10,364 bases of DNA from IMG/VR virus record IMGVR_UViG_2657245521_000008; one strand, written 5' to 3'. The position numbers and the translations under genes are program-made. The notes below the pieces were generated by a model, which was given only the letters and a program-made list of their open reading frames with translations, ran no database searches and had not been told where the DNA came from. The stretch is from a virus. Its lineage: Duplodnaviria > Heunggongvirae > Uroviricota > Caudoviricetes. Numbering within the stretch: the first letter of the stretch is position 1; each line of letters opens with the position of its first letter. Positions 1 through 10,260 of the stretch are shown piece by piece.

Positions 1-351
1 GTCGCAGTCCAGCGTAATGGTGAACTCACCCAGCGCTTTCAAATCTACTGCCGCACGAAGAGCACGGGCGATCAGACGCTGGATTTCCATGGTGCGTCCA
101 CCCTGCTTACCTTTCGCCGCTTCACGCGCGTTACGGGTGTGGGTAGAACGTGGCAGCATGCCGTACTCTGCGGTGATCCAGCCCTGGCCCTGACCTTTCA
201 GGAAGCGCGGCACGCCTTCTTCAATAGAGGCGGTACACAATACTTTGGTATCGCCAAATTCGACCAGCACCGAGCCTTCTGCATGTTTTGTATAGTTACG
301 AGTCAGGGTAACGGGACGCACCTGATTATTGCTACGGCCTGCTGGACGCAT
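1..351 (-). CDS. rph: Ribonuclease PH, N-terminal 117 codons; the gene's 3' end lies beyond the left edge of the window
   Basis: Reverse-complement translation from the ATG at 349-351 reads [117 protein letters not shown], which I recognise as the enterobacterial RNase PH N-terminus. The frame stays open to position 1. Confidence 0.9.
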
Positions 352-477
352 ATTGAAATCTCCGGCTTGAAACAAATGTGGCTGCGCATTATACGGACTT
401 CCGGCGGTTATTCCTATCCTGACAAGGCATCGATGGCTATAATCCTTCCACCTCTCCTTTTATAAACAGGAACGTCT
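352..477. promoter_or_regulatory. Divergent rph / yicC intergenic region; perfect TATAAT at 438-443 about 35 nt upstream of the yicC ATG, with no convincing -35
   Basis: The two genes start back to back (rph ATG at 349-351 on minus, yicC ATG at 478 on plus). A TATAAT hexamer and an AGGAA Shine-Dalgarno precede yicC. Promoter assignment is from sequence only. Confidence 0.3.
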
Positions 478-1341
478 ATGATCCGCAGTATGACCGCCTA
501 CGCCCGGCGTGAAATCAAGGGTGAATGGGGGAGCGCAACCTGGGAAATGCGCTCGGTAAACCAGCGTTATCTGGAAACTTACTTTCGTCTGCCGGAGCAG
601 TTCCGTAGCCTTGAACCTGTCGTTCGCGAGCGTATTCGTTCTCGCCTGACGCGCGGTAAAGTGGAATGTACCCTGCGCTATGAGCCAGATGTTAGCGCGC
701 AAGGTGAGCTGATCCTCAACGAAAAACTGGCTAAACAGCTGGTAACTGCCGCAAACTGGGTGAAAATGCAGAGTGACGAAGGGGAAATCAACCCGGTTGA
801 TATTCTCCGCTGGCCGGGGGTAATGGCAGCCCAGGAGCAGGATCTCGACGCGATTACCGCTGAAATTCTCGCGGCGCTGGATGGTACGCTGGACGACTTT
901 ATCGTCGCACGCGAAACCGAAGGTCAGGCGCTGAAAGCATTGATCGAGCAGCGTCTGGAAGGCGTCACCGCCGAAGTGGTCAAAGTCCGCGCCCATATGC
1001 CGGAAATCCTGCAATGGCAGCGTGAGCGTCTGGTCGCGAAGCTGGAAGATGCTCAGGTGCAACTGGAAAACAACCGTCTGGAGCAGGAGTTGGTTCTGCT
1101 GGCACAACGAATTGACGTTGCCGAAGAACTGGATCGCCTCGAAGCGCATGTCAAAGAGACCTACAACATTCTGAAGAAAAAAGAAGCGGTTGGTCGTCGT
1201 CTGGACTTTATGATGCAGGAGTTCAACCGCGAGTCGAACACTCTTGCGTCGAAATCTATCAATGCCGAAGTGACGAATTCTGCCATCGAGCTGAAAGTGT
1301 TGATTGAGCAGATGCGCGAGCAGATTCAGAATATCGAATAA
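478..1341 (+). CDS. yicC: YicC-family protein (287 aa)
   Basis: Complete ORF from the track, beginning MIRSMTAYARREIKGEWGSATWEMRSVNQRYLETYF and ending EQMREQIQNIE. Recognised as enterobacterial YicC, whose conserved position is divergent from rph. AGGAA Shine-Dalgarno about 8 nt upstream. Confidence 0.92.
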   Translation: MIRSMTAYARREIKGEWGSATWEMRSVNQRYLETYFRLPEQFRSLEPVVRERIRSRLTRGKVECTLRYEPDVSAQGELILNEKLAKQLVTAANWVKMQSDEGEINPVDILRWPGVMAAQEQDLDAITAEILAALDGTLDDFIVARETEGQALKALIEQRLEGVTAEVVKVRAHMPEILQWQRERLVAKLEDAQVQLENNRLEQELVLLAQRIDVAEELDRLEAHVKETYNILKKKEAVGRRLDFMMQEFNRESNTLASKSINAEVTNSAIELKVLIEQMREQIQNIE

Positions 1342-1380
1342 GCTATCAGTAAAAATCACCAAGCAGCAAAAAAACCACAA

Positions 1381-1405
1381 AGCCCGCGAAATGTCGGGCT
1401 TTTTT
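1381..1405 (+). terminator. Intrinsic (rho-independent) terminator downstream of yicC
   Basis: Stem agcccg (1381-1386) pairs with cgggct (1395-1400) around an 8-nt loop, followed by TTTTT at 1401-1405. It is preceded by an A-run, so it could act in both directions. Confidence 0.6.
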
Positions 1406-1450
1406 GTTATCATGAGCTATCATAACAACGCAACAAAGCGCACAATATGC

Positions 1451-1503
1451 GTGTACATAGAGGTGTACATAATGACTTTCATGTACATTGCTTTATGTAC
1501 ACC
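1451..1503. promoter_or_regulatory. Cluster of four palindromic TGTACA hexamers upstream of int; candidate integrase arm-type or AlpA/Vis-type binding sites within the int promoter region
   Basis: TGTACA occurs at 1452-1457, 1464-1469, 1482-1487 and 1496-1501. The first two copies are within an identical 9-mer gtgtacata and the last two share atgtaca. A CATAAT -10-like hexamer at 1468-1473 overlaps the cluster. Confidence 0.4.
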
Positions 1504-1530
1504 CCCATATTCGATATTCAGGTATTCGCA

Positions 1531-2784
1531 ATGCCAAAACTCACAGATATGCAGATCCGCGCATGGATAAAGGCGGGAGACAGATTTGATGGCAAGGCAG
1601 ACGGCAACGGCCTTTATATTTGCTACCCCAAAAACTACACAGTCCCGTTCTGGCGATTCCGCTATAAGCTCGCAGGAAAGCAGCGGGCTATGGTTATAGG
1701 CTCTTACTCCGAACTGTCACTATCAAAAGCCAGAGAAACAGCAAAAGAGCTGTCAGCCAGAGTTGCTCTTGGCTATGACGTAGCAGCAGAGAAACAGGAA
1801 CGAAAAGCTGAAGCACTGGCAAAAATGGAGGCTGAGAAAAACGCCATGCGTGTTTCAGATCTGGCCTCCGAATACTTCGAGCGCCAGATACTTCCGAGAT
1901 GGAAACATCCCGATATCCTTCGCCGGAGAATTGATAAGGATATTAACCCCTGCATTGGGCATATGAAGGTAGAGGATGTTAAGCCACGCCACATTGACGA
2001 CATGTTGAAAGGTATCGTTGACCGAGGAGCACCAACGATAGCAACAGATGTATTACGCTGGACACGCCGTATCTTTGACTATGGGATAAAACGCCACGCT
2101 CTGGAGATAAACCCTTGTTCAGCGTTTGAAGTATCTGATGCTGGTGGTAAAGAGGTTTCCCGCGACCGTTGGCTAACTCGCGATGAGCTTATCAGGCTAT
2201 TCGAGGCTATGCGCACCGCAAAAGGATTCAGCCGCCAAAACGAACTGACATTTAAACTATTGCTGGCACTATGCGTTCGTAAGATGGAGTTATGCGCCGC
2301 ACGATGGGAAGAGTTTGATTTAGATGGTGCGGTATGGCATTTGCCGGAAGAACGCAGCAAAAACGGAGACCCTATTGATATACCTCTACCTTCCCCAGCC
2401 GTTGAATGGTTGAGAGAGCTACACACCTTTTCATGTAATAGCGCATGGGTGCTTCCGGCCAGGAAGATGCAAAACAGAATGATCCCACATATTCAGGAAA
2501 GCACTTTACCCGTAGCACTGGCTAAGGTTCGCGCCGAAATGCCGGATGTGCCTAATTTCACGATTCACGACTTCCGACGCACCGCACGTACTCATTTAGC
2601 AGCATTGGGTGTTGATCCTGTCGTGGCGGAACGATGCCTCAATCATCGCATTAAGGGCGTAGAGGGGATTTATAACCGTCATCAGTATTTTGATGAGCGT
2701 AAAGCAGCACTGGCACAGTGGGCAGATCTGCTGGTGGCACTGGAAAGCGGAAAAGACTACAACGTAACGCCAATCAGAGCATGA
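1531..2784 (+). CDS. int: Tyrosine-type site-specific integrase, P4-like family (417 aa from the ATG at 1531)
   Basis: N-terminus MPKLTDMQIRAWIKAGDRFDGKADGNGLYICYPKNYTVPFWRFRYKLAGKQRAMVIGSY matches the P4/CP4-57 integrase arm-binding domain pattern. The C-terminus contains HDFRRT, LNH and YNRHQY, consistent with the catalytic R/H/R/Y region. The track ORF starts further upstream at 1447, but that extension has no family resemblance and overlaps the TGTACA repeats. Confidence 0.85.
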   Translation: MPKLTDMQIRAWIKAGDRFDGKADGNGLYICYPKNYTVPFWRFRYKLAGKQRAMVIGSYSELSLSKARETAKELSARVALGYDVAAEKQERKAEALAKMEAEKNAMRVSDLASEYFERQILPRWKHPDILRRRIDKDINPCIGHMKVEDVKPRHIDDMLKGIVDRGAPTIATDVLRWTRRIFDYGIKRHALEINPCSAFEVSDAGGKEVSRDRWLTRDELIRLFEAMRTAKGFSRQNELTFKLLLALCVRKMELCAARWEEFDLDGAVWHLPEERSKNGDPIDIPLPSPAVEWLRELHTFSCNSAWVLPARKMQNRMIPHIQESTLPVALAKVRAEMPDVPNFTIHDFRRTARTHLAALGVDPVVAERCLNHRIKGVEGIYNRHQYFDERKAALAQWADLLVALESGKDYNVTPIRA

Positions 2785-2802
2785 TGAGAGGAAAGATTCA
2801 TA

Positions 2803-3753
2803 ATGAAATTACCTGCGCATAAATATTATTCTTTGGATAAAGCAGCCAAACTGGCCGGATGTGAAGTATCCGATTTAATACACTATGCAGCAATTGGGGT
2901 TTTAGAAATATGTATAAAAATTCCACCTATTGAATTGTTTTACCATTACCCAAAAAATGAAGATGCCGAGCCAGAATTACTTAAAGTTGAAACGGATAGT
3001 ATTTTTCATATAGATACAAAAGCAGCACATGAGAATTATCTCCTTGATCTGAGCAATAAGGCAGATAATCTCGAATCATATGGCTTATCATCACTTGATT
3101 ACAAAAATAGCGATAACTATATGTATTTTATGAGGTTTTCATACAAATCAGAACATTTCTCAGTTATAGAGCGATACAATGTTGGGAAGGATGAAAGAGA
3201 TATCGAAAGATGGAGCGGTCTATTAGCAATTCCGCCTGCGTTCATAGATAACGATGAGCGGGAGCTATCAGAATGGGATGATTGGGAGATCTCTGTATGC
3301 GAACTGATGCCTCCGAGATGTGACGAGTTTAGCAAATCGAATAATTATGAAATCGGAGCTTTTTATATTGACGGCTGGTATGAAATAAGCCGAAACAAAA
3401 TGTATATAACTGACTATGAATACAATCTTCTTATAAATGGAGGAAAATATATTTATGACAGACCCATGCACAAACCATCCGCAAACAAGTTATCCAATGA
3501 TATAAATACGCTAAAAGTTAATAAACGTGCCGAACGGTACGCAGTCAATAGGGAGAAACTATTAAAATCTGCAATTTATATACTTAGTAAGTATCCAAAT
3601 GAATGCAGGGGAGAAAGGAAAGAAATAAGCCCTGAGAAGTGGCGTGACTGTCTTGTTCGTCATTTAGACGAAGTTCCACCACTTATGATAACTAATGAAG
3701 ATGTAATTCTTAAACATCTACGATCTGCGGCAAATGGCAAAGTGGATAGTTAA
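2803..3753 (+). CDS. Hypothetical protein (316 aa), AT-rich cargo gene of unknown function; candidate accessory or anti-phage gene
   Basis: Complete ORF with a GAGAGGAAAG Shine-Dalgarno-like stretch 8-12 nt upstream, starting 18 nt after the int stop. Two 60-nt lines counted by hand give roughly 30-37 percent G+C, against about 55 percent in a sampled int line. The protein is rich in Y/K/N/E/D/I and I recognise no domain. Confidence 0.7.
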   Translation: MKLPAHKYYSLDKAAKLAGCEVSDLIHYAAIGVLEICIKIPPIELFYHYPKNEDAEPELLKVETDSIFHIDTKAAHENYLLDLSNKADNLESYGLSSLDYKNSDNYMYFMRFSYKSEHFSVIERYNVGKDERDIERWSGLLAIPPAFIDNDERELSEWDDWEISVCELMPPRCDEFSKSNNYEIGAFYIDGWYEISRNKMYITDYEYNLLINGGKYIYDRPMHKPSANKLSNDINTLKVNKRAERYAVNREKLLKSAIYILSKYPNECRGERKEISPEKWRDCLVRHLDEVPPLMITNEDVILKHLRSAANGKVDS

Positions 3754-3763
3754 CTTACTATAG

Positions 3764-3790
3764 AGGTACTGCAAAATTACAGTACCTTTT
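3764..3790 (+). terminator. Putative intrinsic terminator after the cargo gene
   Basis: Perfect 8-bp inverted repeat aggtactg (3764-3771) / cagtacct (3780-3787) around an 8-nt loop, followed by a short T-run (TTTT at 3787-3790, first T within the stem). The stem is AT-rich and the U-tract short, so moderate strength. Confidence 0.45.
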
Positions 3791-3793
3791 CAT

Positions 3794-3807
3794 TGTATAT
3801 CTATACA
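3794..3807. promoter_or_regulatory. 14-bp palindrome TGTATATCTATACA upstream of alpA; candidate operator
   Basis: TGTATA (3794-3799) and TATACA (3802-3807) are exact reverse complements separated by TC, about 50 nt upstream of the alpA ATG. It shares the TGTA half-site with the TGTACA cluster upstream of int. Confidence 0.3.
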
Positions 3808-3859
3808 GCTAGATTTCTCGTAACGAAGCAACAACTATCGCTAAGAGGTTACGGGAATC

Positions 3860-4063
3860 ATGAACATCGACACTATCCCTACAAAAGGCTATATCAGACG
3901 CTTTCGCCTGGCTGAATTGCTGGGCGTTAGTGTATCCACCATCGACCGTAAAGTAAGAAACGGTTCACTACCACGTCCGGTAAAGCTGGGAGAAAAAATA
4001 ACTGCGTTTGATGCGGTTGAGATTCACAACTGGCTGGCAGAACGCCGCGGGAAGGTGGCCTGA
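3860..4063 (+). CDS. alpA: AlpA-family phage transcriptional regulator / excisionase-like DNA-binding protein (67 aa)
   Basis: MNIDTIPTKGYIRRFRLAELLGVSVSTIDRKVRNGSLPRPVKLGEKITAFDAVEIHNWLAERRGKVA fits the AlpA/Vis pattern of a short helix-turn-helix followed by the LP.P.K.G and W motifs. Size and position after int match CP4-57 and PICI alpA. Confidence 0.8.
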   Translation: MNIDTIPTKGYIRRFRLAELLGVSVSTIDRKVRNGSLPRPVKLGEKITAFDAVEIHNWLAERRGKVA

Positions 4064-4494
4064 TGGAAAAGAAAAACCGCCCATTACAGGCGGCTAATTC
4101 AGATATTCGCGTATCTGATGTTACGCCCCTTACAAAATCCCTTCAAGCACCAAAGCGCACACCGAAAAAGCATCGTGCCAGAGTCTATATGCTGCGTACT
4201 GGTATAGAGGGATGGACAGAAAATGACATTCTTCGCTACTGCCGTCTGTCTTCTGGTCGTAACTATGCAACAGAGTTAGAACGCCAGCTTGGAATCACTC
4301 TGGAGCGTATCGACGAAAAGAATCCTGATGGTATCGGAACACACCTTCGCTACCGTTTCTCCTGCCGTGGTGATGTTCTGAAAGTGATCACTCATATTAA
4401 CCATCTTGCGAACATAAATGATCACAACGGACTTTCTCAGCCGGAAATTGCCGACATTCTGAAACTCTACCCGGACGCGTTTAACGCCGCTTAA
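4063..4494 (+). CDS. Hypothetical protein (143 aa), basic N-terminus; possibly DNA-binding
   Basis: Start ATG overlaps the alpA stop (TGATG), and an AAGGTGG Shine-Dalgarno sits just upstream. The protein reads plausibly but I recognise no family. Confidence 0.6.
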   Translation: MEKKNRPLQAANSDIRVSDVTPLTKSLQAPKRTPKKHRARVYMLRTGIEGWTENDILRYCRLSSGRNYATELERQLGITLERIDEKNPDGIGTHLRYRFSCRGDVLKVITHINHLANINDHNGLSQPEIADILKLYPDAFNAA

Positions 4495-4506
4495 CGGAGA
4501 CTGAAA

Positions 4507-5340
4507 ATGAACATCGAAAAAAGCAGATTAATTTCTGAGGCCGCCCCTCATCTGAACGCCTCTCTGAGCACAATTAACGGTAATGAATTTGCCGCAATTG
4601 TCCCGGTTATTCCTGGTCATATCGGTGGGCGTGAAACCAATATTGTTAGCGCAAAAGCGTTACACAAAGCGTTGGGCGTGGGAAAAGACTTCTCTACATG
4701 GATCACTGATCGCATCTCTGAATATGACTTCACCATTGGGCACGATTACTCAGTCCATAAAACAATTTCCCCAAATTTGGGGAAAAGCCCGAATGGCGCG
4801 GCTTACAGCAAGATTAAGCAGTCTGGCAGACCCGGCAAAGACTATCTGTTAAGTGTCGGAATGGCGAAAGAACTGGCAATGATCGAACGCAATGATCAGG
4901 GTCGCGCTATCCGCCGTTATTTCATCCAGTGCGAGGAAGAATTACAGCGTAGCGTGCCTGAAATCGCCGCCCGCTATCGTCGCCAGCTAAAAGCCCGTAT
5001 CAGTGCCGCAAACAACTTTAAGCCAATGTGCGATGCGCTGAATATGGCCCGTGCCGAGATGGGGAAAACGACGCAGCAACACCACTACACAAACGAGAGC
5101 AATATGATTTCTCGTATCGTTCTTGGTGGGCTAACTGCTAAGCAGTGGGCGCGGATAAATGGCTATTCTGGCGAACCTCGCGACCATATGAACGCAGAAC
5201 AGCTTGAGCACCTCTCATATCTCGAAAGCACCAATATCACGTTAATTGATATGGGCATGGAATATGAGCAGCGCAAAGGAGAACTCACCCGCCTGTCGCA
5301 ACGCTGGCTCGCCAAGCGTCTGGAGGCGCTCAATGTCTAA
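4507..5340 (+). CDS. Phage antirepressor-like protein with AntA/AntB-type N-terminal domain (277 aa)
   Basis: The segment AAIVPVIPGHIGGRETNIVSAKALHKALGVGKDFSTWITDRISEYDFTIGHDY followed by DYLLSVGMAKELAMIERNDQGRAIRRYFIQCEEEL matches the conserved AntA antirepressor signature as I recall it. GGAGA Shine-Dalgarno 7 nt upstream. Confidence 0.78.
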   Translation: MNIEKSRLISEAAPHLNASLSTINGNEFAAIVPVIPGHIGGRETNIVSAKALHKALGVGKDFSTWITDRISEYDFTIGHDYSVHKTISPNLGKSPNGAAYSKIKQSGRPGKDYLLSVGMAKELAMIERNDQGRAIRRYFIQCEEELQRSVPEIAARYRRQLKARISAANNFKPMCDALNMARAEMGKTTQQHHYTNESNMISRIVLGGLTAKQWARINGYSGEPRDHMNAEQLEHLSYLESTNITLIDMGMEYEQRKGELTRLSQRWLAKRLEALNV

Positions 5341-5512: not shown

Positions 5513-6576
5513 TACCCGTCCAGAAGAAGACATTTTCACTGGCTGGTATGTCGCCAAAATCCAGCAATATGACGGCAAAGTCAGGCATTAATACAGCAGA
5601 TGCAAGCAAAGTTTATCATTTGCTGGTGGTCGGAACGGATGCCTTAACCATACCAGAAATCACGGGCGATGATGTTAGCGTTGAGAAGGTCAGCGGCTGC
5701 GCCAGAGAATTTCTGGTCGTAGATGACCTGTTCTGCTCGTGTAGTGACTCCACAAAAACATTCGTCCACGCGCGTGACGTTAACGAAATGAGCGCGATGT
5801 ACTGTGCTTCTGGTTCTTCCAATAGTGAGTTTTCGGAGTCCATAAAAAAGAGCTTGCCGTTATGCGGCAACACGGTTTATGGTTATAAGGCACCTCATAA
5901 AACGGGTGCCGGGATTGGCGTCCTGGTAAATCGAATGGCGACATATGACGCGCCGAGCGTCTTTTTTTATGTCGTAGGTCTGACTCACCCATTTTTTGGG
6001 CGTTGGTGTATAATCCAGCGCCTTTGTCAATCAATGGTGGCTCAGGCAGGGGCTTCTTCGGAAGCGCCGGTATCCATTCGAGCCGGTTACGCCAACCCTG
6101 TCTGGGCTACCACCAGCGAAATTGGCGTTTCCGGTGGTAGCGTTACATGCTATCGAATGGAGGCTGCCACATGCTGGCTACTACCCCTACCCAAAAACCG
6201 CAATTTATCTGGATTATCGCCGCAGTTCGCCGCGATTGCCCGACAATTACCGCCAAAATTCATCATATTGCTGCCGAGTCTGAACGCGATGCTCGCCGTT
6301 CTCTGGTGCGCGATCACATCTGCTTTTTTGCTGGTCGTATCCGCATGGAGGTGGCACATGATTAAAACCTACGATGTGCATATGGATCCCCTCGAACGCA
6401 CAAGCCAGATCATCACACTGACAGAAGTGATTAACGACATTCTGGTGAGCAACTCTCCCTCACGAGACGAAAGACTAAAGGCGTTACTCGCGATATTGGA
6501 TCTCGCCGTTCGTGACGTTCATTTCCTGCTGGAAGGTGGACAAATGCCATGCAAAACGGGGGCAACCAATGAATAA
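5509..6576 (+). CDS. Hypothetical protein as the stop-free ORF (355 aa); integrity doubtful, possibly a fusion of an upstream gene, a non-coding control region and a separate 72-aa gene starting at 6358
   Basis: GGAGG (5497-5501) lies 7 nt before the ATG at 5509, which overlaps the upstream stop (ATGA). No stop occurs in this frame until 6574-6576. However, 5947-6170 carries terminator, promoter and hairpin features, and in 6171-6357 this frame uses rare codons (cta, tta, cga, agg, ata) while another frame looks genuinely coding. An internal ATG at 6358 has its own GGAGG. Confidence 0.4.
5947..5968 (+). terminator. Terminator-like hairpin with a 7-T tract, lying inside the 355-codon ORF
   Basis: gacgc (5947-5951) pairs with gcgtc (5957-5961) around a 5-nt loop, then TTTTTTT at 5962-5968. 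Stop codons occur in the other two forward frames right here (TGA at 5946-5948, TAG at 5975-5977). Confidence 0.3.
6009..6014 (+). promoter_or_regulatory. Perfect TATAAT -10 hexamer (no clear -35), about 160 nt upstream of the ORF at 6171; candidate promoter for the small-gene/primase operon or for a leader RNA
   Basis: TATAAT at 6009-6014 is immediately preceded by TG and sits in an otherwise GC-rich stretch, about 40 nt downstream of the terminator-like hairpin. Confidence 0.3.
6171..6365 (+). CDS. Small hypothetical protein (64 aa) in a different frame from the 355-codon ORF
   Basis: GGAGG at 6159-6163 lies 7 nt before the ATG at 6171. Codons are typical of E. coli genes (ctg, gct, acc, ccg, atc, gcc, cgc, gat, gtg). 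The stop overlaps the next start as ATGATTAA at 6358-6365. The track shows this frame as 6147..6365. Confidence 0.45.
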   Translation: MLATTPTQKPQFIWIIAAVRRDCPTITAKIHHIAAESERDARRSLVRDHICFFAGRIRMEVAHD

Positions 6577-7848: not shown

Positions 7849-10260
7849 ATGCGAAACATTGATCTTATCCGTCAGGTTATCAGTGCGTCTGAAAACAACT
7901 GGCCTCATGTGCTGGGCTGCCTGAACATAAATGTCCCTGACTCTCCGCGCCGTCATGCTCCCTGCCCTGCATGTGGGGGCAAAGATCGATTCCGGTTCGA
8001 TGACAACGGGCGCGGTAGCTTCATCTGTAATCAGTGCGGCGCTGGTGATGGGCTGGATTTAATTAAACGCGTAAATAACTGCGACACAACAGAGGCGGCG
8101 CTGCTTGCCGCTGATGTTCTGGGTATTGATTACCGGACAACGGAAACACCAGAAGCCACCAGCCAGAAACGGGAACAACTGGAAACCGAGCGCCAGCGAC
8201 GCGAACAGGAGCGCCTGAAAAGGGCGGAGAAGGACGAACAACAAAGACGGGATACGTTTTCCCGTCAGTTTGATGACATGCGCAGAAAGGCTGTAAACGG
8301 CAAATCTGATTATCTGGTTGCGAAAGGGGTAGGTGATTTTACATTCCCCGTGTTGCCCGATGGATCTCTGTTGCTGGCGCTGGTGGATAAATCCGGCGCA
8401 GTCACAGCAGCACAGACTATTACCTCACATGGTGAAAAAAGACTCCTGACAGGTTCAGCAAAGCGGGGGGCATATCACGCCATAAACGCACCAGAAACAA
8501 CACAGAGCATCTTAATCGCAGAAGGGCTGGCAACGGCATTATCTGCCCATTTAATTCGTCCAGAGGCGCTGACAGTGGCGGCGATTGATGCCGGGAACCT
8601 GTTATATGTCGCCCAGGTACTGCGGGATAAATTTCCTTCAGCACAAATCATCATTGCTGCGGATAACGACCACAGCGAAGGAAGACAAAACACGGGGAGA
8701 ATAGCAGCAGAAAAAGCAGCTTTATCTGTTTCTGGATGGGTGGCATTACCCCCGACAGGTCACAAAGCAGACTGGAATGATTACCACCAAAAACACGGCA
8801 TTAAATGCGCCACAGAAGCGTTCAATAAGTCAATGTACCAACCACAGGGTAATGGCGTGAAACAGGAGCCACAGACCATTGAGGGAAGCGATTTTAAGGT
8901 TATGGATACCGACCCACTGAAACCAAGAATAGAAAGCCGCGAGGATGGTATTTATTGGGTATCTCCGAGAGCTGACAGCCAGAGTGGAGAAATCATCAAT
9001 AACGAAAGCTGGTTATGTTCTCCGTTAAGCGTTATCGGTACTGGCAGAGACGATAAAGACCAGTATCTCATTCTTCGCTGGCTGTCGTTTGGTTCTGAAA
9101 CGCCGACAACCGCTGCCATTCCACTGGCTGATATTGGTGAACGTGAAGGATGGCGCACACTTAAAGCTGGTGGGGTAAATGTCACGACCAAAAGCAGCCT
9201 CAGAGCAATACTGGCAGACTGGCTACAACGCAGTGGCTCTCGTGAATTGTGGCGTGTTGCTCATGCCACTGGCTGGCAATGCGGAGCGTACATCATGCCT
9301 GATGGGGAAATCATCGGAACACCTGAAAATCCTGTGCTGTTCAGCGGGAGAAGCTCAGCCGCAGCCGGATATACCGTCTCAGGGAGCGCGAAAAGCTGGC
9401 GTGATAACGTGGCGCGTCTGGCCTTTGGTAACTATTCAATGATGACCGGGATCGGCGCAGCACTGGCAGCGCCATTGATTGGGCTGGTGGGCGCTGACGG
9501 GTTCGGCATTCATTTCTATGAGCAGTCGAGCGCGGGTAAGACCACCACGGCAAACGTGGCGAGCAGCTTATACGGCAACCCTGATTTACTGCGGCTGACG
9601 TGGTACGGAACCGCGCTGGGGCTGGCAAATGAGGCCGCCGCCCACAATGACGGATTAATGCCGCTTGATGAAGTTGGTCAGGGCGCTGATCCTGTCAGCG
9701 TTTCACAGTCTGCCTATGCGTTATTTAACGGTGTAGGGAAACTGCAAGGCGCTAAAGATGGTGGAAACCGGGATCTAAAACGCTGGCGTACAGTGGCAAT
9801 CAGCACCGGAGAAATGGATTTAGAAACATTTATCGCTACTTCCGGGCGAAAAACCAAAGCCGGGCAACTGGTGCGACTGCTGAATATTCCGTTGAGTAAA
9901 GCAGTACGCTTTCACGATTACCAGAACGGAAAACAGCACGCAGACGCACTGAAAGACGCTTACCAGCATCACCATGGCGCAGCCGGGCGTGAGTGGATTA
10001 AATGGCTGGCAGACCACCAGCAACAGGCTATTAAAACTGTTCGTGATTGCGAAAGCAGATGGAGAAGCCTGATCCCATCCGATTATGGTGAGCAGGTTCA
10101 CCGTGTAGCCGCGCGATTTGCCATTCTGGAGGCCGCATTGTTGTTAGGCGAGGTTGTAACAGGCTGGGATGCTCAGACATGCCGTGATGCGATACAGCAC
10201 AGCTATAACGCATGGTTGCGCGAGTTCGGCACAAGTACGTGGGAACCGTGGTCGGGTTAA
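7849..10260 (+). CDS. Primase / replication initiation protein (803 aa): N-terminal zinc-binding primase motif, Toprim domain, C-terminal NTPase/helicase-like domain (P4 alpha / PICI Pri-Rep type)
   Basis: CPACGGKDRFRFDDNGRGSFICNQCGAGDGLDL at residues 38-72 is a Cys4 primase zinc-ribbon motif. ILIAEGLATALSAH ... IIIAADNDHSEGRQNTGRIAAEKAA at residues 221-290 is Toprim-like (E ... DxD). A P-loop-like SSAGKTT lies at residues 560-566. GGGGG Shine-Dalgarno precedes the ATG. Confidence 0.9.
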   Translation: MRNIDLIRQVISASENNWPHVLGCLNINVPDSPRRHAPCPACGGKDRFRFDDNGRGSFICNQCGAGDGLDLIKRVNNCDTTEAALLAADVLGIDYRTTETPEATSQKREQLETERQRREQERLKRAEKDEQQRRDTFSRQFDDMRRKAVNGKSDYLVAKGVGDFTFPVLPDGSLLLALVDKSGAVTAAQTITSHGEKRLLTGSAKRGAYHAINAPETTQSILIAEGLATALSAHLIRPEALTVAAIDAGNLLYVAQVLRDKFPSAQIIIAADNDHSEGRQNTGRIAAEKAALSVSGWVALPPTGHKADWNDYHQKHGIKCATEAFNKSMYQPQGNGVKQEPQTIEGSDFKVMDTDPLKPRIESREDGIYWVSPRADSQSGEIINNESWLCSPLSVIGTGRDDKDQYLILRWLSFGSETPTTAAIPLADIGEREGWRTLKAGGVNVTTKSSLRAILADWLQRSGSRELWRVAHATGWQCGAYIMPDGEIIGTPENPVLFSGRSSAAAGYTVSGSAKSWRDNVARLAFGNYSMMTGIGAALAAPLIGLVGADGFGIHFYEQSSAGKTTTANVASSLYGNPDLLRLTWYGTALGLANEAAAHNDGLMPLDEVGQGADPVSVSQSAYALFNGVGKLQGAKDGGNRDLKRWRTVAISTGEMDLETFIATSGRKTKAGQLVRLLNIPLSKAVRFHDYQNGKQHADALKDAYQHHHGAAGREWIKWLADHQQQAIKTVRDCESRWRSLIPSDYGEQVHRVAARFAILEAALLLGEVVTGWDAQTCRDAIQHSYNAWLREFGTSTWEPWSG

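Follow-up and report, generated by a model that had tools for sequence, protein, structure and literature searches.

A repeat cluster upstream of int is the predicted P′ arm of a P4-type attachment site in a phage-inducible chromosomal island at yicC

Described attachment sites and the repeats upstream of int

In the record of satellite P4 (NC_001609), the feature named 'attP arm sequence repeat' is annotated as a tandem pair at 4174-4151, which is followed by the core (4097-4078), a second tandem pair (3965-3942), and an inverted copy at the start of int (3926-3915). The P4 integrase (Int) and Vis both repress Pint, and the IntI integrase of PAI I536 represses its own promoter (PMC7286903). 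For KplE1 (CPS-53), IntS was found to act via P′ arm sites that overlap its own promoter, a mode of control predicted to be general for int promoters embedded in attL (Panis et al., PMC2951348). A related arrangement, the 'doubled motif' tgTGTATTGCantgTGTATTGCa, was described in helper-embedded phage-inducible chromosomal islands (HE-PICIs), where one doublet precedes the attP centre by 81 bp and another follows it by 132 bp (213 bp apart); the authors reported the motif to be specific to HE-PICIs and named both the arm-binding domains of Int and AlpA as possible binders (PMC10111431). Here we examined a 10,364-nucleotide stretch of DNA (Caudoviricetes record IMGVR_UViG_2657245521_000008; hereafter the window), in which a first-pass annotation based on the letters alone had pointed to four copies of the palindrome TGTACA upstream of an integrase gene, int. 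Our analysis indicates that this cluster most likely represents the P′ arm at the attachment site where a phage-inducible chromosomal island (PICI; a P4-type satellite) has integrated into the 3′ end of yicC, and we place the probability that the repeats are arm-type sites of the island's own P4-family integrase at about 0.85.

The four copies of TGTACA were found where they had been reported, at 1452-1457, 1464-1469, 1482-1487, and 1496-1501 (start spacings of 12, 18, and 14 nt). About 1.9 copies are expected in the whole window, yet these four, all within 1452-1501, were the only ones on either strand, and the extended pattern RTGTACAY matched solely the same places. The identical 9-mer GTGTACATA at 1451 and 1463 was likewise recovered by the repeat finder (family D2), which also detected the 12-bp direct pair, an inverted pair spaced by 14 bp, and, between sites 2 and 4, an inverted repeat of 16 nt. 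When the motif density was compared with that of randomized sequence, the cluster was far above chance: three or more copies of TGTACA inside 60 bp were observed in 0 of 1,500 first-order Markov simulations of the window, and three or more copies in 0 of 20,000 shuffles of the 128-bp intergenic segment 1403-1530, which excludes a chance low-complexity cluster.

The palindrome was not retained as the conserved unit. Relatives were found to carry the nonpalindromic words GTGTACCCAA, GTGTACACCT, TGTACCAA, and GTGCACCCAA at the same positions, and the true repeated unit is the longer, asymmetric 10-mer GTGTACATAA, within which TGTACA is incidental. As written in the window, the unit GTGTACATA(A/G) occurs twice in direct orientation with a 12-bp period and twice as an inverted copy. 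Two of the predicted arm-type sites are on the plus strand: (i) P′1 at 1451-1460 (GTGTACATAG, direct, one mismatch to GTGTACATAA), which holds the first TGTACA; and (ii) P′2 at 1463-1472, a direct and exact GTGTACATAA in 12-bp period with P′1, which holds the second. The inverted copies are on the minus strand and include a weak, lineage-specific site, P′3, at 1479-1488 (TCATGTACAT on the plus strand, two mismatches; third TGTACA), and the predicted arm-type site P′4 at 1493-1502 (TTATGTACAC on the plus strand, the exact reverse complement of GTGTACATAA), which contains the fourth TGTACA and is located 29-38 bp upstream of the int ATG. No RNA family of Rfam matched in or near the cluster.

When the two layouts were compared, the distance from the start of the P pair to the core centre was 86.5 bp in P4 and 87 bp here, that from the core centre to the start of the P′ pair 122.5 and 126 bp, and that from the start of the P′ pair to the inverted copy 39-50 and 42-51 bp, respectively. 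The 12-bp period within the pair and the order of pair, core, pair, and inverted copy are common to both, as are the domain architecture of the integrase (including Arm-DNA-bind_3) and the position of int, which is next to attP such that the P′ arm contains the region upstream of the gene. Since the P4 geometry is matched, the cluster can be read as the P′ arm of an attP built on the P4 plan. The differences from P4 are (i) the word, which is TTGGGGGCAT in P4 and GTGTACATAA here; (ii) the target, the 3′ end of a tRNA-Leu gene in P4 and of the protein gene yicC here; (iii) the gene set, which is PICI-style (alpA, antA, and a Toprim/DUF927 primase) and unlike that of P4; and (iv) two additions, a second, weak inverted copy and a terminator that the island carries between its core and P′ sites.

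Similar to the HE-PICIs, the yicC island was found to carry a tandem doubled word that starts with TGTA, has a 12-bp period, and flanks attP as co-oriented doublets in a PICI with an int-alpA module; the separation is 213 bp in both cases (81 + 132 bp in HE-PICIs, 87 + 126 bp here). The HE-PICI core word TGTATTGC was not found at these sites, which have TGTACATA and share only TGTA with it, such that the cluster is not a member of the doubled motif by sequence. Counter to the HE-PICIs, the words here are lineage-specific, extra inverted copies precede int, and the word follows the N-terminal domain of Int and not AlpA. The doubled motif described as unique to HE-PICIs is thus one instance of an old P4 attP plan that is used by yicC PICIs as well. 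The order of target gene, attL, and int, with P′-type sites directly upstream of int, is shared with KplE1 (IntS/TorI) and PAI I536 (IntI), as is an intergenic region of about 190 bp, enough for a whole P′ arm, and negative autoregulation would be expected by analogy. The words differ from those of KplE1 and PAI I536, and the target is a protein gene and not a tRNA gene. Whereas binding and autoregulation were demonstrated experimentally for P4, and the transcription starts, P′ sites, and recombination directionality factor (RDF) sites of KplE1 were mapped and mutated, the sites described here were read from sequence and no consensus promoter was found.

By analogy with P4 and lambda, each word of about 10 bp (GTGTACATAA) would be recognized by the arm-binding domain at the N-terminus of the tyrosine integrase that the island encodes. 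In the excised form, the crossover would be flanked by co-oriented pairs, that at 1451-1472 about 126 bp to its right and the matching one about 87 bp to its left, and one or two inverted copies at 1479-1502 would complete the arm just before int. Integrase protomers with their catalytic domains on the core would reach out to these arm sites, and this bridging would build the intasome for integration and excision. Int may also repress its own gene through the arm sites, as do P4 Int, KplE1 IntS, and PAI I536 IntI. We lean slightly toward this operator role, because the terminator leaves 1407-1530 for a promoter, the sites fill 1451-1502 of that interval, and the precedents point the same way. 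Thus, among the functions that the first-pass annotation had listed for the cluster, integrase arm-type sites are strongly favored by the comparative evidence presented below and an int operator is compatible and plausible, while AlpA is not supported as the binder.

Conservation of the sites on both arms

Both arms were examined in genomes that carry related islands. PA45B has an attL and an Int N-terminus identical to those of the window, and its attR was found to include the doublet GTGTACATAA-GG-GTGTACATAA, which begins 87 bp to the left of the centre of the overlap. Within 40 kb of PA45B, all five matches to the word (at most one mismatch) were located in the arms, three in attL and two in attR; in CRE1540, with an island 98-99% identical to the window, five of the six such matches within 24 kb were likewise in the arms. 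In near-identical islands, the P pair at attR, which is outside the window, was detected at 37968/37980 (L002) and at -99/-87 (L094). The repeated word is distinct from the core-type half-sites (of the TCAATATTC type) and is present on both the P and P′ arms.

The attL, attR, and attB sequences of 12 E. coli islands, with int genes of 66-99.9% nucleotide identity to that of the window, were then compared. Counted from the yicC stop codon, these islands had a direct pair at +108/+120 (P′1 at +108/109) and an inverted copy at about +150 (about 38 bp before the int ATG); at attR, they had a direct pair at about -100/-88 from the chromosomal anchor (range -104 to -79). The site offsets were constant within a few bp in most islands, with one outlier (L009) shifted by about 9 bp. 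Outside TGTAC/GTAC, which formed the only invariant columns, the surrounding DNA was strongly diverged. A good inverted copy at the P′3 position was detected in some relatives only (e.g., L004, L006, and L009), and this column was not conserved overall. In the att-proximal regions of related elements, the sites were thus conserved, but the palindrome and the third copy were not.

A wider survey with one genome per species yielded 80 loci, which included about 50 distinct islands of the same plan: terminator, 46-bp spacer, site 1, 12-bp period, site 2, inverted site(s), and int. These islands are from Enterobacterales, Aeromonadales, and Betaproteobacteria, and in most of them the visible upstream sequence ended in a yicC-like 3′ end (ATCGAGTAA). 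Across E. coli and other Proteobacteria, the positions of the sites were retained in about 60 related islands. When the best pair of 10-mers at 11-13 bp spacing was sought without supervision, the P′1/P′2 pair was recovered in most loci, and most of the relatives checked had an inverted copy of their own word at the same distance from the int ATG.

These data also bear on readings of the repeats outside site-specific recombination, as iterons for replication, as signals for packaging, or as some other cis element. Satellites do carry iterons, and the ori repeats of P4 are annotated near its attP; however, the P4 repeats equivalent to those found here are annotated separately from the ori repeats, the primase/replication module of the island is 6 kb away, and the sites are at fixed distances from the core on both arms and covary with Int. 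Explanations of this type, taken together with chance, are therefore extremely improbable in our estimate.

More distant integrases (31-43% identity), from Steroidobacteraceae (L057-L073) and Hydrogenophaga (L077-L091), were found to have three to four tandem repeats and an inverted copy directly upstream of int. The words at these loci were TGTAGCT for integrases of about 42% identity and TGGGGGTAT or GTTGGTAT for those of about 31% identity, with TGGGGGTAT reminiscent of GGGGGCAT of P4.

Covariation of the arm word with the integrase N-terminal domain

Int was found to have an Arm-DNA-bind_3 domain at amino acids 4-90 (nucleotides 1540-1800; Pfam, E = 9e-20). An AlphaFold model of amino acids 1-105 was used solely for strand placement; its best structural matches were 3JTZ, 3JU0, and 3RMP, solved arm-type binding domains of P4-like integrases, and its predicted strands are at 28-31, 40-47, and 50-58. 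By comparison with the arm-binding domains of lambda and of the Tn916 type, we infer that the beta sheet contacts the DNA. The segment that covaries with the word, amino acids ~27-45 (nucleotides 1609-1665), corresponds to the end of beta1, the hairpin, and the start of beta2, and reads ICYPKNYTVPFW in the Int of the window and LRYREADKTPTW in the L004 type. No close homologue of Int was detected in the phage collection, in which the best match had 34% identity.

The 3′ half of the word differed by lineage and tracked the hairpin class of Int across 53 loci, which were sorted into four to five classes. C[YF]P..Y..PFW was paired with TGTAC-ATA (6 loci, window included), R[YFH]R..D with TGTAC-(C/A)CAA (26 loci), SYR.NY with TGTAC-ACCT/CCCT (12 loci), C[YH]R..F..PKW with TGTAC-CA(A/T) (7 loci), and CYRESY..PVW of Azonexus with TGCAC-CCCT (2 loci); the hairpin RYRKED of L051, a locus also counted with the R[YFH]R..D class, was paired with GTGCAC-CCAA. 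A few second or third sites inside a locus deviated from the class word. The nearest neighbor by the N-terminal region belonged to the same class at 46 of 49 loci, compared with 20 of 49 when the nearest neighbor was taken by the C-terminal (catalytic) domain, by whose similarity the classes were interleaved. Four pairs with catalytic domains 98-100% identical had different words: L024/L031, window/L004, L005/L006, and L051/L048.

The comparison of the window with L004 was informative as to how such differences arise. Over positions 1-5300 the two are near-identical except for patches at ~1410-2100, which covers the arm sites and the N-terminal half of Int, and at 2600-2720, which is within int. 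Differences numbered 20-32 per 100 nt in the patches and 0-7 elsewhere over the 5.3 kb, with sharp mosaic boundaries, a pattern indicating that the arm sites and the N-terminal half of Int were recently replaced together by recombination.

These natural domain swaps were also used to weigh AlpA, a Vis/Xis-like helix-turn-helix (HTH) protein encoded at 3860-4063, which could occupy the repeats, bend the P′ arm for excision, and/or repress int. Such a role would be in keeping with its membership in the Phage_AlpA family, the repression of Pint by P4 Vis (PMC7286903), the tandem direct repeats, which are typical of Xis-type sites, and the view of the HE-PICI authors, who left AlpA as a possible binder of the doubled motif (PMC10111431). 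The word was nevertheless found not to follow AlpA. The AlpA of L004 is 100% identical to that of the window and that of L005 97% identical, but the three islands have three different words (ATAA in the window, CCAA/ACAA and ACCT in L004 and L005, respectively), whereas L002 has the same word as the window with an AlpA of only 75% identity. In addition, the divergence patch between the window and L004 covers only the arm sites and int. In the related PICI EcCICFT073, alpA is self-activated and is induced by a helper phage and not by the SOS response, and AlpA was without effect on a Pint-lacZ fusion (PMC6092414). EcCICFT073 is listed at ycfD-phoQ (Table S1, PMC6092414), and its integrase and att differ from those of the yicC island; this experiment is therefore only indirect for the island studied here. 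Overall, we regard AlpA as an improbable binder of the repeats, and the natural swaps assign them to the N-terminal domain of the integrase, although the conserved spacer (1404-1450) could be a target of AlpA or some other factor.

A second suggestion of the first-pass annotation was that one regulator recognizes both the cluster and a related palindrome upstream of alpA through a TGTA half-site. The palindrome TGTATATCTATACA is indeed present at 3794-3807, and TGTA...TACA symmetry is found in both sequences, each in a control region, as would be expected if TGTACA were the operator of a dimeric island or host regulator that coregulates int and alpA. Yet TGTATATCTATACA occurs with identical flanks in the window, L004, and L005, that is, with three different arm words, and is absent from L002, which shares the arm word and Int N-domain of the window, as well as from all other islands compared. 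As the distribution of TGTATATCTATACA does not follow the arm word, a shared regulator finds no support. Furthermore, the palindrome is not conserved in the cluster: the words of relatives are asymmetric (TGTACCCAA and others) and are arranged as direct, direct, and inverted copies, and the same words recur at attR, where no promoter is near. A host protein with a single fixed specificity is excluded, since different word classes coexist within E. coli. The shared-operator explanation is thus very unlikely.

The palindrome upstream of alpA can be extended to TTGTATATCTATACAG (3793-3808), about 50 bp upstream of alpA and directly after a terminator-like hairpin at 3764-3790. It was considered as a LexA (SOS) box, CTGT-N8-ACAG, and this was rejected: TTGTATATCTATACAG has TTGT-N8-ACAG, with the near-invariant C replaced by T, and is found in one allele group only. 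The induction of alpA by helper phage and not by SOS in EcCICFT073, a different island, also speaks indirectly against a LexA box (PMC6092414).

With the cluster assigned to the arm-binding domain of Int, several points that weigh against the assignment need to be considered. First, the third TGTACA (1482) is a poor, nonconserved copy and may be no site. Second, a sigma-70 consensus scan of 1300-1600 found no promoter, which leaves the operator role, like the position of any promoter, a proposal. Third, the AlphaFold model, which was built from a single sequence, is of only moderate confidence (predicted local distance difference test score, pLDDT, of 71). Fourth, the arm sites adjoin the region that encodes the Int N-terminus and, in the excised circle, are contiguous with the attR arm; co-transfer could therefore give covariation without direct readout. 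Finally, L005 (X14-3) has an Int of the SYR class and ACCT-type words at attL, whereas its attR arm is almost identical to that of L006, of the R.R class (ACAA/CTAC); L005 may be a recent recombinant with mismatched arms. Physical binding of the words by Int is what we infer from four observations: the sites are present, they recur on both arms, their positions are conserved, and they covary with the N-terminal domain.

The covariation raises the possibility, which we offer tentatively, that islands competing for yicC have repeatedly swapped a module of arm sites and Int N-domain, giving at least four specificities (ATA, MCA, ACCT, and CAW) matched to C.P, R.R, S.R, and C.R hairpins, respectively. 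If this diversity were selected for orthogonality, each Int would build intasomes, and repress its own gene, solely on the arms of its own island, and there would be no cross-excision or cross-repression by a co-resident or incoming rival. A readable recognition code would follow, in which three to four hairpin residues correspond to arm-site bases 6-9, and this code could be used to engineer orthogonal P4-family integrases. The pairing of hairpins with words provides ready predictions for specificity swaps. The swapping of arm sites with the N-domain and the clean hairpin-word classes are the only mildly novel features, and none of these results would surprise specialists in site-specific recombination.

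The yicC target, the intergenic region, and other island genes

The window was found to include rph (minus strand) and yicC (478-1341, plus strand), followed by the island. Match to the end of yicC was detected in 5,403 of 5,426 complete E. coli genomes, and 458 genomes carry the integrase-side junction; for the island-free majority, the match ends at about position 1341-1343 of the window. dinD directly follows yicC in K-12, and the island is between yicC and dinD in island-bearing genomes. Table S1 of Fillol-Salom et al. 2018 (PMC6092414) lists a PICI at yicC-dinD, EcCIRM13514, with the att core GAGCAGATTCAA, and the element can on the basis of this entry be considered a catalogued kind of phage-inducible chromosomal island. 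The integration site, core, and island type are the same as those of EcCIRM13514 and of CfCIP10159, a second yicC-dinD PICI. The catalogue gives a short att core only, and arm sites are not described in those of its entries and passages covered here; the arm sites are given in this work. For annotation, these results provide the true left boundary and the anatomy of a widespread yicC satellite, with a crossover inside yicC and P′ sites that are the likely control region of int. No tRNA gene was detected in the window.

The block common to attL, attR, and attB of the 12 islands was CAGATTCA. The classical core consists of a pair of 9-bp inverted half-sites around a 7-bp overlap. Consistent with this layout, the attR of L012 is a perfect inverted repeat, TCAATATTC-AGATTCA-GAATATTGA, and comparison of the att sequences places the putative overlap, AGATTCA (7 bp), at 1322-1328 on the plus strand, with the exact cleavage positions predicted. 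This overlap is flanked by a chromosomal core-type half-site at 1313-1321 (TGCGCGAGC) and an island-borne one at 1329-1337 (GAATATCGA), such that crossover would occur within the last codons of yicC.

An intrinsic terminator, a hairpin with a T-run, was identified by a terminator scan at 1379-1406 on the plus strand (hairpin 1379-1402). The cluster had been described as positioned between a backbone terminator and int; its position is as described, whereas the terminator belongs to the island. The hairpin was present in all of the about 50 related islands and absent from the empty site of K-12, where another sequence with a terminator of its own follows the yicC stop codon, and the final codons of yicC differed by island lineage. 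As these sequences are lineage-variable, present in every island, and different in K-12, the last 13 nt of yicC (1329-1341), a gene annotated as yicC in matching E. coli genomes, and the hairpin are island DNA. The island terminator takes the place of the native one after yicC and shields int from transcription running out of yicC. Because the island provides both this terminator and the 3′-terminal ~13 nt of yicC, stop codon included, the yicC transcript of lysogens ends in island DNA. In carriers, the native K-12 terminator is displaced beyond attR.

The yicC remnant at attR (L002-L013 and L094; e.g., L002 38040-38070) was found to be intact in some islands and to lack up to about 13 nt in others, and all of these deletions start immediately after CAGATTCA. 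At the attR of PICIs, tRNA fragments with fixed-start 'damage' have been reported, and 'attB drift' was noted for yicC PICIs (PMC10111431). The remnant deletions resemble this 'damage' and may explain the 'attB drift' of yicC PICIs.

Between the terminator and the first arm site is a conserved spacer (1407-1450, plus strand), a candidate int promoter, host-factor site, or RDF site. Its length is constant (46 bp in the family consensus), and its sequence is highly conserved across 50 distinct islands. The spacer region includes an inverted repeat, TTGTTATCAT/ATCATAACAA (1404-1428, with a doubled TATCAT), and AAAGCGCA at 1435-1442. A near-match to the integration host factor (IHF) site, AATCATGCGCTTT, is on the minus strand of the family-consensus spacer with two mismatches from WATCAANNNNTTR; the window's own sequence matches poorly. 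By eye, a weak CTATCA-N18-CA(C/T)(A/G)AT was seen in the family consensus, ending about 5 bp before site 1, and it is not claimed as a promoter.

Just upstream of the int ribosome-binding site, TTCGATATTCAGG was detected at 1510-1522; it resembles the island-side half-site plus the start of the overlap (TCAATATTC-AG). This region is kept as TTCAATRTTCAGG in many relatives and is absent in others (L011-L013), and it could be a core-type Int half-site or merely Shine-Dalgarno context.

The int gene (1531-2784, plus strand) encodes a tyrosine integrase with the Pfam domains Arm-DNA-bind_3, Phage_int_M, and Phage_integrase. An in-frame ATG at 1447 would give a 445-amino-acid open reading frame (ORF; 1447-2784) translated through the arm sites, and the genome annotation of 39EVA (L006) uses the equivalent start. 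This start was rejected as a probable misannotation: the Pfam domain and the conserved N-terminus MPKLTD start at 1531, a Shine-Dalgarno AGG precedes 1531, and relatives have indels between the sites and the ATG.

Downstream of int, the window has an ORF of no Pfam match (2803-3753), the AlpA-family HTH gene noted above (Pfam Phage_AlpA), a gene for an AntA-like protein (4507-5340; Pfam AntA), and a gene for a Toprim/DUF927 primase (7849-10260; Pfam DUF927, Toprim_3, and Zn_Ribbon_Prim). Matches at Rfam gathering score were found for the Hfq-binding small RNA isrK (5890-5967) and for the C4 antisense RNA (6030-6117); in related islands, the region corresponding to 5890-6117 holds genes of the Ash family and Icd-like genes, and an immunity module in the style of the P1/P7-type c4-icd-ant is thereby suggested for the island.

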